Positions 1,029 to 21,452 of a stretch of DNA of 64,000 nt are shown piece by piece. Within the stretch, counting starts at the first letter, position 1. Each line of letters starts with the position of its first letter. The translations under genes and the position numbers were made by a program. The stretch comes from a virus, in the IMG/VR virus record IMGVR_UViG_3300023202_000135, positions 26,693 to 90,692 of that record. One strand, written 5' to 3'. The notes beneath the pieces were generated by a model. The model did not search any database, was not told where the DNA came from, and was given only the letters and a program-made list of their open reading frames with translations.

Positions 1029-3119
1029 TCAGCCCTTCACGAGTTCAAAGAAGAGTCCGCGGAGGTTGATCGCCTGGACCGCAGAGTCCAGGACGATGCC
1101 TCCGTTGTAGAGGATCTCGTTGTTGTAGAGGAAGCTGTCGTCGTAGAACTGACGACGGTCGACGGCCGCTTGGACGCGAACGTCTTGCAGCGGGAGGTAG
1201 GGAAGGGACCCGGCCGCGTCGCCTGATTGCGTGGCGAAGTCCGGGTGCGCGGGCGGGAGCACAGGAAGGGGTGATCCGCCAGACGGCCACGGGTCGACGG
1301 GCGGCGCAACGTCCCGGCGGTAGTCTTCGTGGGTCAGCGCCAGGGTGTCGTCGCCGCCAGACATGCCGGTTATGGCCACGGGCCCACCGGTCGAGGTGAT
1401 CGGCTCGTTGAAGTCCGCGCCTGCGAGCTGGTGCGTGAGGTTGATGATCGACGGGTCGTTGTCGTCCTGACGCGCGGTGATCTGCACGTGACCGTTGATG
1501 GCGTTGGTCAGGTTCTCCACGGTCTCGTCGATGGTCCCGCCGATCTGCACGAGGACGCTGCCGCCGGCCACGGCGCCGTTGTCGTCGAACTCGAACGTGC
1601 GCGGGAATCCGCCCGTCTTATCGTCGATGGTGATGCTCTGCGCCTCCAGACCTACAAGGCTCGTGACCTGGATCGAGCCGGTCGCCTTGGCCTTGCGGAC
1701 GTGGCTGAACAGGATGCGGTCGATGAGGCACGACAGCACGCCCGTCGCGTTGTCGATGGCTGCGTAGATGTCGGACAGGCGGATGAGGAACCCGCTGCTG
1801 TTCTCGAACAGGGATACCAACGACGTCACGATCGCCGCGTGCACAGCTTGCGGCTCGAACCGCTGATCGTAGACGACCGGCGCGAGGTAGATGTCGACGT
1901 AGGCCTGATCGGGCGTCGCGACGGCGTTGTGGACTGTGACCATGGTCCGATCGCGAAGAAACTGCTGGATCTCGAAGGGCTGCGTCCCTGAGATTTGCGC
2001 ATACCGCGTGTAGGGGACCACGGTGTCCTGGGCCACGCTTCCGGAGCTGACCACCATGTCGACCGCTTCGCTCGCCCACGCGTAGATGATGACGAGGTTG
2101 GTCGCGTAACTGGCTTGAAGGATGTCCGCGAATCCGAGGGCGATACCGGGAACCCGGCGGATGGCGAGGTCGTAGTCGTCGCGTGTGACCACGCGATCGG
2201 ACGAGCGCAGGAACGCGGGGATGTTCACCCGCATCTCCTCCAGGCTCTCTCGGTCGATACCGCCGCGGGCCGCAGTCGAAGAGGTGAACGACATTTGCAC
2301 CGTCCCCGACGTCTCGATCAAGGCCGCCGTGACAGCGCCCGTCACGTTCCCCGGGCCGCTGGTATTGCCTCCGGTGCCGGTTGTCCGGCGGAAGCGGACG
2401 GTGATCTCGCCGTCCGGGATCTTTCCGGCGTTGGACCCATCACCGAAGGTGAAGACGACCGACCCGTTCGGAGCGTACTGCGCCGTGTAAACCTGCTCGG
2501 TAGATTCGCGAAGCGCGAGGTTCTCCACCTCGACCCACCGGTTGAGCGGGTCGCTCGGGTCCCCGACGAACACCTCCCAGGATCCGTCAGCGACGCCGGT
2601 CGAGGAGAGCTGCACCGTCTGGTTAGGGAGGTTGTTGGTGTCGAACGTCTCCGTCAGCTCCGCACCTTCGGTCAGGAGGAGCGAGGCCGTAGTTGACCCG
2701 GCCGGAATCACGACGTCATCGAGCAGCTCGTACGACCGGCCGTTGGCGCCGGTGAAGACCTCGCCCTTGGTGATGAGAGCGCCGTTGGTGGTCACCTCCG
2801 CGGGCATCTCGTCGATGGTGACCGTGACGGCGGCGGCGACGGGTCCTCGGGGGCGGTAGCCGACGCTTTGAGCGAACCGGAGCGCGCTCTCGTACCGCCG
2901 GGCGGTGGCTAGGAAAATCTCGGTGGCGACGCTGTCGATGTTGAAGGAGACGATGTCGCCCACGTAGCCCAGGAGTTCGATGAGCGTTGTCCCCAACGTG
3001 CTCTCGAAGAAGTCGGACCAGTCCTCGGGACGCGTCTTCTTGACGACGTCGGTGAGTTCTTCGACGATCGTCTCGAACTCTCGCTTGGTATAGCTCGTCG
3101 GCTTGAGCGCAGTCGTCAT
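1029..3119 (-). CDS. Baseplate wedge protein (T4 gp6 / Baseplate J-like)
   Basis: N-terminal DWSDFFESTLGTTLIELLGYVGD...FLATARRYES...GYRP, plus FGDG..GKIP and GGIDRESLEEMR...RVVTRDDY motifs. Confidence 0.9.
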   Translation of the reverse strand: MTTALKPTSYTKREFETIVEELTDVVKKTRPEDWSDFFESTLGTTLIELLGYVGDIVSFNIDSVATEIFLATARRYESALRFAQSVGYRPRGPVAAAVTVTIDEMPAEVTTNGALITKGEVFTGANGRSYELLDDVVIPAGSTTASLLLTEGAELTETFDTNNLPNQTVQLSSTGVADGSWEVFVGDPSDPLNRWVEVENLALRESTEQVYTAQYAPNGSVVFTFGDGSNAGKIPDGEITVRFRRTTGTGGNTSGPGNVTGAVTAALIETSGTVQMSFTSSTAARGGIDRESLEEMRVNIPAFLRSSDRVVTRDDYDLAIRRVPGIALGFADILQASYATNLVIIYAWASEAVDMVVSSGSVAQDTVVPYTRYAQISGTQPFEIQQFLRDRTMVTVHNAVATPDQAYVDIYLAPVVYDQRFEPQAVHAAIVTSLVSLFENSSGFLIRLSDIYAAIDNATGVLSCLIDRILFSHVRKAKATGSIQVTSLVGLEAQSITIDDKTGGFPRTFEFDDNGAVAGGSVLVQIGGTIDETVENLTNAINGHVQITARQDDNDPSIINLTHQLAGADFNEPITSTGGPVAITGMSGGDDTLALTHEDYRRDVAPPVDPWPSGGSPLPVLPPAHPDFATQSGDAAGSLPYLPLQDVRVQAAVDRRQFYDDSFLYNNEILYNGGIVLDSAVQAINLRGLFFELVKG

Positions 3120-15478: not shown

Positions 15479-16957
15479 TTACGAGGGCGTCGCTGCAATC
15501 GACACGGTGTCACCGGGCCACTCGATGGCCATATTCCATTGACGGCCGTCGTCGTCGACCTGGGCGATCCGATACGGGATCCCGGTGACTTGGTCGGTGA
15601 TCTGGTTGAACGGGAGGAGACTCGAAGACGTAGCGGCGAACCGCGGGACGTCCCATACCGCCCGTACGTCCTGGACGATGGCTATGCTGGTGTCCGGGGC
15701 CACGTTGTTGTCCGTGCTGCCCGTCACCACGCCGGACGCCACGGCGTGCCCCGCACTCGTGGGGCCGCCGGTCGGCAGAACGACCACGGGCGATATGCGG
15801 AAAACGTCATCGCGCTCCGCGAACGGCACGCCGAACGTCTCCTTGATGTAGAGGCTCTCCGTGACGTTGTTGTGCACCCACAGCGAAAACAGGACGTCCC
15901 TGTTCGAGACTCCGATCTTGGGGTCGTCGACTTGGCTCTGCAAGTCGAGCCGGGGGTTCCCGTCTGTCTGTAGTTGGTACCCTCGGACAATGTGCGGCTG
16001 TAGGGCCGCGGTAATGTTCTTGTCGGAGCCCCCGTCGTCGACGAATCGGTAGCTTCTACTGTCTGTGAATGGGATGGCTCCGAACAGTTGCAGGCCCGCA
16101 CCTTGCGTGAACCACCGGCGGGTATGGTCGCGGTCCGAGTGGAGATCCGGGTTGGGCTGGAACGTCAGAACCGCACCGTGACCGACGTTCACCGCCTCGC
16201 CGGCCTTACCCGCCTCGACGTAGAAGCCTTCCCGGCCGCCGACGAACAGGAACTCGTTGTCGAGGGTCATGTCCAGGGTTATCTGGATGCGGTGCGCCAC
16301 GACCTGCAAGCGTTGCGAGTCGTCCTTGTTCTGGTTTTGCAGCCACGGGATTACGTCGACCCGGTCCGTCGCGCCGTCCGCGTTGATGAGGAGCCCACAG
16401 TGCTGGACGACGCCGTCCCCGTCGTACCACCAGAGGTCGTTGAGGAAACTGGTGACGTCGAAGGCATGGGCGTTGATCGCGTCGTGAAGGTTCTGTAGCG
16501 ATACCTCGAAGGTAGACCCGATAGCGACCGAGATGTTTCCGGCGCCGACCGTCGCGTCGTTGTCGAACTCGAAGGTGACCGACGTCGTCCCGTCGCTGAT
16601 GGTGATGGTATCGCCATCGGTCACTTGCCCGGTGATGGTAATGTCGCCGCGGGCGGGTGACGCTCCGTCACCCCCGGACATGCCGTTGGTGGTGATGACA
16701 GCACCGGCTTCGCTGTGCGTGATAGCGACGTTGCCGCCGCTCCCGTTGCTGTCGTTTTCCAGGTCGATCGTGAACCGCTTGCCGTCCAGGAGGTAGTAGT
16801 CTCCGGACCCGCCCGAGGCGGTACTCCCGGTGACGTTCTCGAACCCAACGTCGAGCAGGAAGTCGCGGAATGCTGCGGTCACGGTCTCCTTGGTGTGGCT
16901 CAGGTCCACCGGAGAGAACGTCCAGGTCGCGCGCTTCCAGTCGATAGGTGGTGCCAT
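15479..16957 (-). CDS. Putative virion structural protein with a TFEFD domain
   Basis: 492 aa; RBS AGGAG upstream; contains DGDTITISDGTTSVTFEFD...NLHDAIN. Confidence 0.7.
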   Translation of the reverse strand: MAPPIDWKRATWTFSPVDLSHTKETVTAAFRDFLLDVGFENVTGSTASGGSGDYYLLDGKRFTIDLENDSNGSGGNVAITHSEAGAVITTNGMSGGDGASPARGDITITGQVTDGDTITISDGTTSVTFEFDNDATVGAGNISVAIGSTFEVSLQNLHDAINAHAFDVTSFLNDLWWYDGDGVVQHCGLLINADGATDRVDVIPWLQNQNKDDSQRLQVVAHRIQITLDMTLDNEFLFVGGREGFYVEAGKAGEAVNVGHGAVLTFQPNPDLHSDRDHTRRWFTQGAGLQLFGAIPFTDSRSYRFVDDGGSDKNITAALQPHIVRGYQLQTDGNPRLDLQSQVDDPKIGVSNRDVLFSLWVHNNVTESLYIKETFGVPFAERDDVFRISPVVVLPTGGPTSAGHAVASGVVTGSTDNNVAPDTSIAIVQDVRAVWDVPRFAATSSSLLPFNQITDQVTGIPYRIAQVDDDGRQWNMAIEWPGDTVSIAATPS

Positions 16958-18116: not shown

Positions 18117-18689
18117 TCACTGGTTGCCAACGGGGCGGAGACCGTCCCGCGGGATGACCTTGTCGATGACCAGACCCATGGTGACCCGGAGGGCGTCCTC
18201 GCCGTCCATGTCGATGTCGCCCGGATCGTAGCTGTTGGGCCAGATGCCGACGAGGTCGAGGCGGCGCTCGATGGTCCCCTCCGGCGAGAAGAGGCTGACC
18301 CAGCCGGCCATCTTGTAGTCGCGGGCGAGGCCTGTCTGTCCGTTCTCCGGGTTGTGGACGAGGTAGTTCCACTTCCAGAGGACGCTGTGCACCTGCCGGT
18401 CGACGTAGTCCTGGTAGACCACGGACAAGTCGTCGTAGGTCGGGTTCCCTGCGAACTTCCGCTTCTCGTTGAGGTACCCGATCTCGACGATGCCCACCTG
18501 TCGCTTCGGCACCGGGAAGGTACGGAGCGACAGAAGGAGGACGTCGTCCTGACCGCCGGAACCCTGGCCGCCGCCCTGCACCGCCGAGTTGAGACCCGTG
18601 ATGTAGAGCAGCGCGTTGTTCTGGCGCTGGGGCTCGTGGTTGCCGCCACGAGCGCCGATGTGGTTGGCGAAGAGGTTTTCGAGGGCCAT
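18117..18689 (-). CDS. gp19: Tail tube protein
   Basis: EPQRQN, KRKFAGNPTYDD, LWKW, YK, GIWP motifs; directly after the sheath gene. Confidence 0.9.
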   Translation of the reverse strand: MALENLFANHIGARGGNHEPQRQNNALLYITGLNSAVQGGGQGSGGQDDVLLLSLRTFPVPKRQVGIVEIGYLNEKRKFAGNPTYDDLSVVYQDYVDRQVHSVLWKWNYLVHNPENGQTGLARDYKMAGWVSLFSPEGTIERRLDLVGIWPNSYDPGDIDMDGEDALRVTMGLVIDKVIPRDGLRPVGNQ

Positions 18690-18733: not shown

Positions 18734-21436
18734 TCAGACCGACGCTTCCGTGAACTCGGCGCCCGACTGGAACACCGCGAAGTCGATCTCGACGATCTCG
18801 GCCGCCTCGATCGGGATGAGCTGGATCCGGCCGCGCATCGTCTTCTGCCGACGCACTTCCGGCGGGTTGGTCGTCTCGTCGCACCGGACCGAGAACCGCT
18901 CCAGGCCGCGATCGGCCTGGATGGTTGCCAGGATCGGGTTGACGAGCTGCACGAACCGGTTCCAGGTCACCGGGTCGTTGGGCTCGAACACCAGGAAGCG
19001 CACCGCGGTCGCGATCAGCTTCTCAGCGTGGAGCAGGAGGCGGCGGATGTGGAGCGAGTTGAGCGCCGAGTCGCGCCGCAGGGCCGTGCGGTTGCCGAAG
19101 AAGGTGATCCCGGTCGGGAACTGCACGAAGGGGTTGACCCGGTTGGTGTCGCCCACCAGCAGGTCGCGGTCGGTGAGGGTGGGGCTGTACTCCAGCTTGA
19201 GGCCTTCGACCACACCGCGGGCGTGACCGGCGATCGGGAACTGCGGCCCGGCCACCGCGTCGGTGTAGGCCATGAGCGCCGTCAGCTTGCCGGACGGCGG
19301 AGTCCACACCTTGCGCTTGTTGTAGTCATCCTGGATCTGCGTCCACGGCCACGCGATGACGGCGTAGGACGTGTCGATCGCGTTGACCGGGCTGTTGGGT
19401 AGGGCCGAAACCCCGTTGTGCCAGTCGACCACCTCGTCCCGGCTGAGGCCGAACGGCACGTCGATGACGGCGAGCGCGTCGGCCCGGCTCTCGGCCACGT
19501 CGATCATCTCGTTGATGACCTGATAGTGCGTGGCTCCCGGGATGGTGATGACGTTGGTCTCGATCAGCTCGGCGTTGCGCAGGGCTTGCAGGCCGGTGGC
19601 CTTCTGCCCAGTGACGCTGCCGATGTAGTCGGCCGAGGTCACGATCGAGTTGCCGCTGCCGTCGACGAGACCATCGCGGCCCGCGGTGCCGGGGGCGACG
19701 CCGAGTTGGTAGGTGCCGACCGAAGGCGACCCGTTGTCCTCCAGGACGTCGGCGCGCACGTAATCGGACGGCACGGCCTCGTTGCCCAGGCCCTCCTCCA
19801 GCACCAGCTCGATGTTGCGGTCGCTGTTCGGGTCGAGGTTGAGGCCGCGGTAGCGCTCGACGGTCACCAGCGTCCCGGTCTGGTCGGCCGGGGCGCGAAC
19901 GACGAAGTCGAAGCTGCCGGCCGGGGAGCCCAGCAGGGTCGACTGCTTGACCTCGACCTCCAAGTCGTTGCCCCAGGTGCCGGGGCTGATCGCGGTGATA
20001 CCGACCACGGACGCGGTCACGCCGGGGAGCCCTTCGGCACCGCCGGAGAGGCCGGTCACCGTGATGTTGGCGCCCGTAGTGGTGATGTCCTGATTGCCCT
20101 GCTCGCCCGGATCCTCGGCGGTGAGGTCGGCGGCCGGGACGGTCACGGTGGCGTCGACGGCCGTGACGGCGGTCTGTTGGTTGATGGCCACGATGAGGTT
20201 GGCCATGGTCGTCGCGGCGTCGGGGCCGATCAGGACCGGGACGTTGCCCGAGACCCAGGCGTTGTCGTCGTCGAACTCGAAGGTGACGCCCGCGCCGTCC
20301 GCGCCGCCGGTGAGCTGCGTGAGGACGAGGTCAGCGTCAGCGTCGATGGTCGACAGGTTGGCGTTGTCGCCGTCCGCGCCCTCGACGTCGTGGACCAGCT
20401 TGACGGTCGGGGTGCCGCCCTGGTTGGCGGTGTCGTCGCTGGCGGTGATCTGGAGCAGGCCGACTCCGTTGATGGCCTGCACGAGATTGAAGAGGGTGTC
20501 CGCGATGGTCGCGCCGATCCCGCCCGCGACGGATCCGGGGGTAGTGGACGAGTCGTTGTCGAACTCGAAGGTGACGGCGTGCTCATCGGCGCCCGAGAGC
20601 GTGGACGGGGCAGTCGGCGGCGTGGCACCGGCGACCGCGATGGTCGCGCTGTTGCCCTTGTTGGTGACGATGTCGTGCGTGAGCAGGACGTCGTAAGGGC
20701 CGGCGCCGGTCGGGGCGCCTGCGGTGATGTTGAGGGCCGAGCCGTTGACGGCTGCCTGGAACTCGGAGGCGCCGTTGTCGACGGTCGCGCTCTTGTCCAC
20801 TTCGATGTCACCGGTGGTGAGGCCGCCGCCATCGGTGAACTCGAAGATCACCTCGTTGTCGAAGGCGTCGTTGAGCGTGACGGTGTCGTTGGTGGTCGGG
20901 GTCGACGCGAAGCTGGCCGTGGCGCTGGCCGCGACGCCGTTGCCGTCGTCGATCGTGAGGTAGTCGGCGTCATCGGCATTGTCGGAGAAGACGATGTCGC
21001 CTTCGGAGGCCACGGCGCCGCTGCCGTCATTGACGCTGACCAGCTCGCCATCGGTCGGGTTGAGCGAGCTGTCGAAGGAGACCGTGCCGGTGGCAGCGAC
21101 GGGGTCGGTACCACCCGAGAGGCCGGGCAGGGGCCGGTCGGCCTCGATCGCCCCGTAGGTGGGGTTGTCGGTGTTGGCGATGCGGAGGAAGATCGCGTTG
21201 TTGCCCTTCTTGAGGTACTGGACGAGGGCTTGCAGCCCGTGGTCGTCCAGACGAGGGCGTCCGAGCTTGCGGACCATGTCCGCCTCGCTCGTGATCTCGA
21301 TGGGTTCGCTGAGGGCGCCCTTGCTGGCGCCGCCGATGAAGGTCGGCCGGGTCAGGCCCAGGTTGAGCGCGTACTCGGTGAAGTCGAACTCGTTCGTGAA
21401 GATGCCGGGGCTGAGGCGGGCGGTTGGGATGGGCAT
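18734..21436 (-). CDS. gp18: Tail sheath protein with a large nested insertion
   Basis: Start MPIPTARLSPGIFTNEFD after an AGGAG RBS; C-terminal WPW, PPSG, PIAG..RG, VNPF, FGNRT, IRRLL, FEPND motifs. Confidence 0.95.
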   Translation of the reverse strand: MPIPTARLSPGIFTNEFDFTEYALNLGLTRPTFIGGASKGALSEPIEITSEADMVRKLGRPRLDDHGLQALVQYLKKGNNAIFLRIANTDNPTYGAIEADRPLPGLSGGTDPVAATGTVSFDSSLNPTDGELVSVNDGSGAVASEGDIVFSDNADDADYLTIDDGNGVAASATASFASTPTTNDTVTLNDAFDNEVIFEFTDGGGLTTGDIEVDKSATVDNGASEFQAAVNGSALNITAGAPTGAGPYDVLLTHDIVTNKGNSATIAVAGATPPTAPSTLSGADEHAVTFEFDNDSSTTPGSVAGGIGATIADTLFNLVQAINGVGLLQITASDDTANQGGTPTVKLVHDVEGADGDNANLSTIDADADLVLTQLTGGADGAGVTFEFDDDNAWVSGNVPVLIGPDAATTMANLIVAINQQTAVTAVDATVTVPAADLTAEDPGEQGNQDITTTGANITVTGLSGGAEGLPGVTASVVGITAISPGTWGNDLEVEVKQSTLLGSPAGSFDFVVRAPADQTGTLVTVERYRGLNLDPNSDRNIELVLEEGLGNEAVPSDYVRADVLEDNGSPSVGTYQLGVAPGTAGRDGLVDGSGNSIVTSADYIGSVTGQKATGLQALRNAELIETNVITIPGATHYQVINEMIDVAESRADALAVIDVPFGLSRDEVVDWHNGVSALPNSPVNAIDTSYAVIAWPWTQIQDDYNKRKVWTPPSGKLTALMAYTDAVAGPQFPIAGHARGVVEGLKLEYSPTLTDRDLLVGDTNRVNPFVQFPTGITFFGNRTALRRDSALNSLHIRRLLLHAEKLIATAVRFLVFEPNDPVTWNRFVQLVNPILATIQADRGLERFSVRCDETTNPPEVRRQKTMRGRIQLIPIEAAEIVEIDFAVFQSGAEFTEASV

Positions 21437-21452
21437 CGGTAGCTCCTGTAGG

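Follow-up and report, generated by a model that had tools for sequence, protein, structure and literature searches.

A predicted three-layer nest of homologous modules in the contractile tail sheath protein of an IMG/VR virus

Sheath proteins of contractile tails can show a 'Russian doll' organisation, which has been published for T4 gp18 and diffocin CD1363 (PMC6088184, citing Aksyuk 2009/2011). A further work describes 'type 3' sheaths; according to it, additional sheath domains are positioned at a distance from the tube, and T4 can do without them (PMC9230969). The insertion domain of the XM1 sheath has earlier been likened to domain D3 of FliD. Further, in Geovibrio flagellin a duplicated FliD-like domain is inserted in a loop of its parent (PMC11532411). 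Published cases comprise the nesting of sheath domains that are not homologous to one another and a single flagellin with a self-insertion of depth two, and no description of homologous self-nesting in a sheath was found in the literature outside subscription journals and supplements. The present work concerns a stretch of 64,000 nucleotides of an uncultured phage (positions 26,693 to 90,692 of the virus record IMGVR_UViG_3300023202_000135; this whole stretch is referred to as the window), and within it the tail sheath gene, whose product of 900 amino acids (aa) contains an insert at residues 113-468. It is highly probable, in our judgement, that this insert represents three homologous nested copies of an alpha/beta module of about 110 residues, which would serve as an acidic, non-catalytic surface decoration.

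The insert (nucleotides 20033-21100) consists of three N-terminal hairpins (N1 to N3) followed by three C-terminal bodies (Ca to Cc). The original prediction, made from the sequence of the window, had placed three N-terminal halves and then three C-terminal halves at 20030-21100, with every copy inserted at the same point, between DG and TFEF, of the preceding one. The order of the halves was borne out by shuffle statistics and profile matches, and the common insertion point agrees with the partial profile matches, all of which split at profile position 24/25. The sheath gene and the units within it are as follows.

18734-21436, minus strand: contractile tail sheath gene, 900 aa (phrog_23, PF17482 and superposition of the predicted model)
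21011-21100, minus strand: N1, beta1-beta2 hairpin of the putative outer module, residues 113-142 (profile 1-27; aligns to the N-terminal half of P0026; structural match to T7 gp12)
20933-21010, minus strand: N2, hairpin of the putative middle module, residues 143-168 (profile 2-25; solved single domains span 138-381)
20582-20932, minus strand: inner module, uninterrupted, N3 (residues 169-195) plus Ca (residues 196-285) (profile 1-111, 72.8 bits; structural match to FliD 5fhy_B)
20288-20581, minus strand: Cb, body of the putative middle module, residues 286-383 (profile 24-112, 64.9 bits; pairs with N2 in the model)
20033-20287, minus strand: Cc, body of the putative outer module, residues 384-468 (profile 25-112, 81.7 bits; tree neighbours P0026, P0139 and P0153)

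The similarity between these units was examined pairwise by means of Smith-Waterman scores, with 300 shuffles per pair. Among the hairpins, N1 is similar to both N2 (z 4.5) and N3 (z 6.1), with none of the 300 shuffles scoring as high in either case. Among the bodies, Cb and Cc form the most similar pair (z 11.5, 0/300 shuffles as high), and similarity is also seen for Ca-Cb (z 6.0, 0/300) and Ca-Cc (z 3.3, 4/300). All nine pairs of an N-unit with a C-unit are at background (z -1.3 to 1.1), and a BLASTP comparison of the sheath against itself gave no off-diagonal matches. A module profile of 113 positions, for which 150 uninterrupted modules found in other proteins were used, has five matches in the sheath, at profile positions 1-27, 2-25, 1-111, 24-112 and 25-112, i.e. 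as N-only, N-only, full, C-only and C-only, and the common split at 24/25 corresponds to the turn between beta2 and beta3. As one profile matches all three layers, these share homology at the level of their sequences. The insert contains 53 D+E versus 3 K+R and no Cys, compared to 66 versus 46 charged residues of these kinds in the rest of the sheath.

Comparative evidence for the order of the layers comes from sheath relatives, of which 48 were collected and 30 read. The original prediction had proposed counting the nesting depth in homologues with a hidden Markov model, and such a count finds depths of 1, 2 and 3 among the sheath orthologues. One example of the simplest type is P0026 (634 aa), which carries one uninterrupted module (profile 2-112, 108 bits). 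In P0009 (773 aa) a hairpin, a full module and a body follow one another (N-N-C-C), sheaths of this type being about 774 aa long, while sheaths of about 890 aa show the N-N-N-C-C-C arrangement seen in the window. When the sequences are aligned by MAFFT without guidance, the single module of P0026 aligns to N1 plus Cc with a gap between them, and the N-N-C-C sheaths P0009, P0012 and P0014 align to N1, N2, Cb and Cc. Because P0026 aligns in this manner, the outer pair would be the ancestral, orthologous sheath domain with the other layers lying inside it. In a tree based on the bodies, every layer clusters with the same layer of other depth-3 sheaths, Cc is nearest to the single-module bodies of the 634-647-aa sheaths P0026, P0139 and P0153, and the closest non-sheath relatives of the inner layer are the stand-alone complete modules P0188 and P0147. 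In a midpoint-rooted FastTree tree of the sheath core, which is without support values, the nesting types are scattered.

The pairing of hairpins and bodies was further examined in models predicted by AlphaFold2 (AF2). For the whole sheath, modelled with 26 sequences, the mean predicted local distance difference test score (pLDDT) was 85.2, with blocks of the insert at 75-94, and the pattern beta-beta/beta-beta-helix-beta-beta-beta-beta occurs three times within the insert. For the insert modelled alone (residues 105-475) the pLDDT was 84.6, and the predicted template modelling scores (pTM) of the whole-protein and insert-only models were 0.61 and 0.68, respectively. Pairing was read from the ranges aligned by VIA-align, where a residue number of the insert-only model plus 104 gives the sheath residue. 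Of the 50 listed matches of the insert-only model to solved structures, 34 span sheath residues ~136-382 with 66-109 residues aligned (15 of them with Z >= 6), and the solved partners in these cases are contiguous domains of ~95-120 residues. As a contiguous domain is aligned across this range, N2 and Cb are predicted to form one domain. Examples of matches of this kind are those of the middle module (138-381) to the sheaths of A-1(L) (91-184; Z 9.6, root-mean-square deviation (rmsd) 2.2, 91 aligned), Mu gpL (97-215; Z 9.4, rmsd 3.0, 106 aligned) and PhiTE (84-179; Z 9.2). A further 15 of the 50 matches are to the contiguous inner copy (~160-286; ten with Z >= 6) and the remaining one is a different, longer match. 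The inner module is matched by FliD 5fhy_B (Z 9.2, rmsd 2.3, 100 residues aligned to model 167-285), and the FliD matches range from Z 8.5 to 9.2 over 166-286. In the whole-protein search, the outer module (109-461) is matched by T7 gp12 143-247 (Z 7.8, 90 aligned), and the crAss001 capsid-entry chain aligns over sheath 140-381. The ranges 109-461 and 138-381 in the AF2 models correspond to the pairs N1-Cc and N2-Cb which structure prediction had been expected to reveal. Recursive nesting, in which the first N-terminal half pairs with the last C-terminal half, is supported by three independent lines of evidence, viz. the profile coordinates, the orthologue series and the AF2 models. Two chain segments flanking a complete inserted domain, as in nested sheaths, are likewise indicated by the sequence and by the models.

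A search of 1.84 billion representative proteins with the module profile gave matches to 1,242 at E <= 1e-3, 309 at E <= 1e-10 and 22 at E <= 1e-30, the number 1,242 referring to protein clusters at 50% identity and being a lower bound for the family. The best 150 of the 1,242 matches have lengths of 164-4,805 aa and contain up to 15 matched stretches. To describe the architectures, 196 proteins were scanned with profiles for three parts of the module, viz. A (the hairpin), B and C, at a threshold of 8 bits, which gave 326, 409 and 348 matches, respectively, versus 4, 0 and 4 on reversed sequences. The commonest architectures are ABC (37 proteins), ABCABC (17), ACABBC (14), AAABCBCBC (9) and AABCBC (8). 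Any part was found in 178 of the 196 proteins, at least two of each part in 86, and equal numbers of A, B and C in 58; the set is not independent, as 48 proteins had been found as sheath relatives. Of these 58 balanced multi-copy architectures, 39 can be parsed as nested or tandem, compared to 2.9% of shuffled strings of the parts, and 21 of the 39 have a depth of at least 2. When eight nested proteins were compared with the full profile, each of them had as many N-only as C-only matches. The depth is 3 in P0025 and P0045, 4 in P0065 (632 aa), 5 in P0055 (614 aa) and 7 in P0050 (1066 aa), where six N-only matches, one full match and six C-only matches are seen. The point at which the host copy is split differs between lineages, being at profile position ~24 in the sheath of the window, at ~34, i.e. 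after beta3, in P0050, P0055 and P0065, and at ~64-75 in P0071. In P0071 (407 aa) a complete module lies between profile positions 64 and 75 of the host copy (ABABCC), and P0116 (367 aa) shows the same order of parts. In P0010 the full profile shows that the inner copy is permuted (77-111 followed by 1-72), and the 14 ACABBC sheath relatives share this order of parts. The occurrence of several split points together with permuted copies argues that whole copies were inserted into several loops that tolerate insertion, and that the termini of the module are adjacent. When eight deeply nested or tandem non-sheath proteins were compared with PHROGs and Pfam, only P0062 was matched (a weak sheath match and DUF4215); P0050, P0055 and P0065 have no match in either database.

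In regard to the identity of the host protein, the product of 18734-21436 (minus strand) is a contractile tail sheath, as assessed from its sequence and its predicted model. It matches the tail sheath family phrog_23 in PHROGs (E 2e-63) and, in Pfam, PF17482 (E 6e-6; 26.6 bits, slightly below the cut-off of 26.9) and Gp18_domIII_N (residues 35-85). The AF2 model superposes on the sheath of phage KP1 (9ev2_S1; Z 35.0, rmsd 2.7, 439 aligned), on T4 gp18M (3foa_A; Z 23.2) and on 26 further solved sheath entries (Z 18-32). A protease-resistant fragment of T4 gp18 (3fo8_D, 87-352) aligns with model residues 94-595 (Z 8.8, rmsd 4.0, 114 aligned), the flanks in this alignment being sheath residues 94-112 and 470-595 (nucleotides about 19652-20027 and 21101-21157). 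This alignment to the predicted model suggests that a layer resembling gp18 domain II separates the sheath core from the three modules, and the sheath protein as a whole may be a five- or six-level nest.

The best structural matches of the module are external domains of simple sheaths located at the same position in the chain, viz. those of A-1(L), Mu gpL, PhiTE, Milano, Sf14, E217 and Bas63, to which its sequence identity is 12-21%. Also among the structural matches are FliD, the flagellin FliC and T7-like nozzle proteins. A FliD D2/D3-like fold superposes over most of the module (5h5w_B, Z 8.6; Foldseek E 2e-5 for FliD). Z values of 8-9, as obtained for FliD, exceed the background given for VIA-align only by a modest margin, and no sequence similarity is detectable between the module and FliD. 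Domains neighbouring the chitin-binding modules of lytic polysaccharide monooxygenases (LPMOs) also resemble the fold (Z 5.8-6.1). As a positive control, Mu gpL 99-203 is recognised as Pfam PF17481 (48.4 bits), and the module profile shows a weak match to Mu gpL 129-179 (8.7 bits). A fold of the PF17481 type is seen in the insert, and the position of the insertion in the sheath chain is also that of this domain, the outer module starting at residue 113. Other candidates were considered and rejected: the Pfam matches of single modules to HicB_lk, Calycin_like and LapA (E 0.002-0.07) are sub-threshold and mutually inconsistent, and the matches obtained by searching the Protein Data Bank (PDB) sequences with the module profile (Crov588, E 0.003 with no stretch passing; ThreeFoil, E 0.025) are unconvincing.

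Based on these results, the insert may be interpreted as follows. In the module, the order of elements would be beta1 and beta2, the split, and then beta3, beta4, a helix and beta5-beta8. The outer copy would comprise residues 113-142 and 384-468, the middle copy residues 143-168 and 286-383, and the inner copy the uninterrupted residues 169-285. The outer copy would be the sheath's own external domain, in the PF17481-type position and orthologous to the single module of the 634-aa relatives; the second copy would lie in the beta2-beta3 turn of the outer copy and the third in the same turn of the second. The N and C termini of the module are predicted to be side by side, and nesting would be possible because they are adjacent, an adjacency shown by the natural circular permutants. 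The chain would thus pass outward along the three hairpins and return by way of the three bodies. That the copies are homologous, where they are split and in which order they are nested is shown by the sequences, and the paired folding is a prediction of the models. Outward projection of the array, which the original prediction described as a three-domain stalk, is inferred by analogy, the equivalent domain being external in solved sheaths, so that each sheath subunit would carry three extra, very acidic and non-catalytic domains on its outer face. In view of the acidity of the insert, each subunit would add a strongly negative appendage. The probable function is surface decoration, in which the array would adhere weakly and/or brace the extended sheath laterally, and it is probably not required for contraction.

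Several observations weigh against this interpretation. The N2-N3 pair is not significant when compared pairwise (z 0.85, 70/300 shuffles as high), and 19 of the 58 balanced architectures have no parse under the unpermuted grammar, most of them because the 14 permuted ACABBC proteins, all of which are balanced, cannot be parsed in this way. PF17481 gives no match to the sheath at E <= 1 and none to single modules at E <= 5, and the module should be considered a distant relative of the PF17481 domain rather than a member of that Pfam family. In the insert-only model the C-terminal part of the outer module (the last ~40 residues) is poorly folded (pLDDT 37-69 from the block at model residue 331), due to which the structural pairing of the outer module is taken from the whole-protein model. 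A single structural match (Z 7.8) spans the outer pair N1-Cc, which is supported mainly by the comparative analysis of sequences.

One alternative is that the domains are not nested, the three hairpins constituting a separate small beta domain, behind which three bodies that lack their N-terminal part would be arranged in tandem. The N-halves, as well as the C-halves, do occur in tandem in the primary sequence, and the nested pairing of hairpins and bodies in three dimensions is taken from predicted models and not from solved structures. However, contiguous solved domains align across N2 to Cb and across N1 to Cc in these models, in the depth-1 orthologues N1 and Cc are adjacent and form the one complete 108-bit module, and the equality of N-only and C-only counts holds in all nested proteins examined; we regard this alternative as very improbable. 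A different possibility accepts the same structure and assigns it another history, in which the hairpin block and the body block were separately duplicated in tandem by unequal crossing-over. Consistent with this, the DNA of the junctions where Cb and Cc begin is a 42-nucleotide direct repeat (79% identical; family D1), these two bodies also being the most similar pair of units, and a few unbalanced strings are known (AABC in two proteins, ABCBC in three). These strings, however, may be detection misses, as the 8-bit threshold alone accounts for the hairpin missing from P0004, P0005 and P0021, and separate duplication needs two matched events for each layer. It should also be considered that in 14 sheath relatives the inner copy is a permuted whole module, that three different split points occur across lineages, and that the nearest non-sheath relatives of the inner layer are complete stand-alone modules (P0188, P0147). 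Separate duplication is therefore unlikely as the origin of the nest, and insertion of whole copies is the preferred history.

A third alternative concerns function, and holds that the nested array serves the tail in adsorption, as an organ that specifically binds a receptor or glycan, rather than as a passive decoration or brace. The module is also present on the baseplate wedge and on another protein of the tail region, its fold is similar to that of the outer FliD and flagellin domains and of domains located next to the chitin-binding modules of LPMOs, and a receptor-type role has been published, as a hypothesis, for extra sheath domains (PMC9230969). However, the conserved positions of the module are glycines and core hydrophobic residues, and no conserved pocket or motif was identified among them. 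A binding organ of this kind appears possible but on balance improbable, and decoration of the sheath surface is the interpretation we prefer.

A broader proposal is that the module is a dedicated self-nesting building block whose abutting termini, together with at least three loops able to take up a whole copy, would let phages and some bacteria grow out-and-back rods by recursion on any virion protein, with a length that can be adjusted (depths of 1-7 are observed). In this proposal the cassette moves in frame between genes through recombination at a short 'G-L/M-S-G-G'-coding sequence, which is present immediately ahead of the first hairpin and again where each module ends. This proposal is speculative and rather improbable in our estimate. 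A 25-nucleotide direct repeat (84% identity; window 20034-20058 and 21105-21129) brackets the whole 1,071-nucleotide insert, and both its copies code for G-L-S-G-G, one immediately ahead of N1 and the other where Cc ends. A weak match (1.6 bits) to the last 17 positions of the profile is also seen in P0009, ahead of the first hairpin. The 25-nucleotide repeat could be a structural neck motif or a footprint of recombination.

The sheath gene is adjoined by the tube gene (18117-18689) and by baseplate genes, in a window whose G+C content is ~65%. A 674-aa open frame, for which the high G+C content may be the explanation, lies antisense to the sheath gene (19418-21442, plus strand). A tblastn search with the whole sheath against 50,697 phage records gave 2,035 matching records, in none of which a single place covers at least 80% of the query; among the 25 matches listed, only H1, which covers 46% of the query in two pieces, reaches N-terminal of residue 444. 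Two further copies of the module are present in other genes of the window:

1344-1694, minus strand: uninterrupted copy at the C-terminal end of the baseplate wedge protein (gp6/J-like; open reading frame (ORF) 1032-3119; profile 1-112, E 3e-28)
16439-16801, minus strand: circularly permuted copy in a 492-aa protein of the virion region (ORF 15479-16957; profile 78-111 followed by 2-70)

The wedge protein (ORF 1032-3119, minus strand; 696 aa) matches phrog_219 (E 1e-44) and Pfam Baseplate_J, and the profile match within it confirms that, as claimed in the original prediction, an uninterrupted module can be seen in the baseplate wedge. The 492-aa protein has no match in PHROGs. The module is also carried by a cultured siphophage, Rhodobacter phage RcTitan (KR935213; 8559-9128 and 10535-12748), where gp13 (189 aa) contains one copy at residues 72-175 (32 bits) and gp17 (737 aa), in the position expected of the major tail protein, shows two matches (52-157 and 174-246). 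RcTitan is thus a possible experimental system for the module. The tblastn searches with the baseplate module (E <= 1e-3) and with the insert (E <= 1) gave no match, to which the low-complexity filter may contribute, as RcTitan is a carrier.

A domain that repeatedly accepts copies of itself offers a separate route to elongated protein structures made of one chain, and its relatives form a natural collection in which to study the features that render a fold 'insertable'. For domain libraries, the results add a domain family without a Pfam model which comprises at least 1,242 clusters at 50% identity. The results also suggest that the nested module is a means by which tail thickness and surface charge are tuned in many phages.

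When compared with the described systems, the sheath of the window resembles the Russian-doll sheaths in that each outer domain would be inserted in the one below it, the chain would run out and back, and the extra domains would be away from the tube; however, the dolls in the published sheaths are described as different domains, whereas the three outer dolls of the present sheath are homologous to one another, each inserted copy occupying the same turn of its host. It is similar to sheaths with the PF17481 domain (Mu gpL 99-203) in carrying a domain of the same fold at the same position in the chain, after about residue 100, and unlike them in that those carry one copy and here there is a nest, the module of which is missed by the Pfam model. 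The similarity to Geovibrio flagellin is that host and inserted domain share homology, as they do in its domains D4/D5 (in the sheath, z is 11.5 for Cb-Cc and 6.0 for Ca-Cb); the comparison of 9au6_A with the module gives Z 4.6. In both cases, the parent domain would hold a homologous copy in one of its loops, at the surface of a polymer that is helical. However, the nest in Geovibrio is two deep and belongs to a flagellar filament, whereas the nest described here is predicted to be three deep in a tail sheath, with relatives up to seven deep and three insertion loops.

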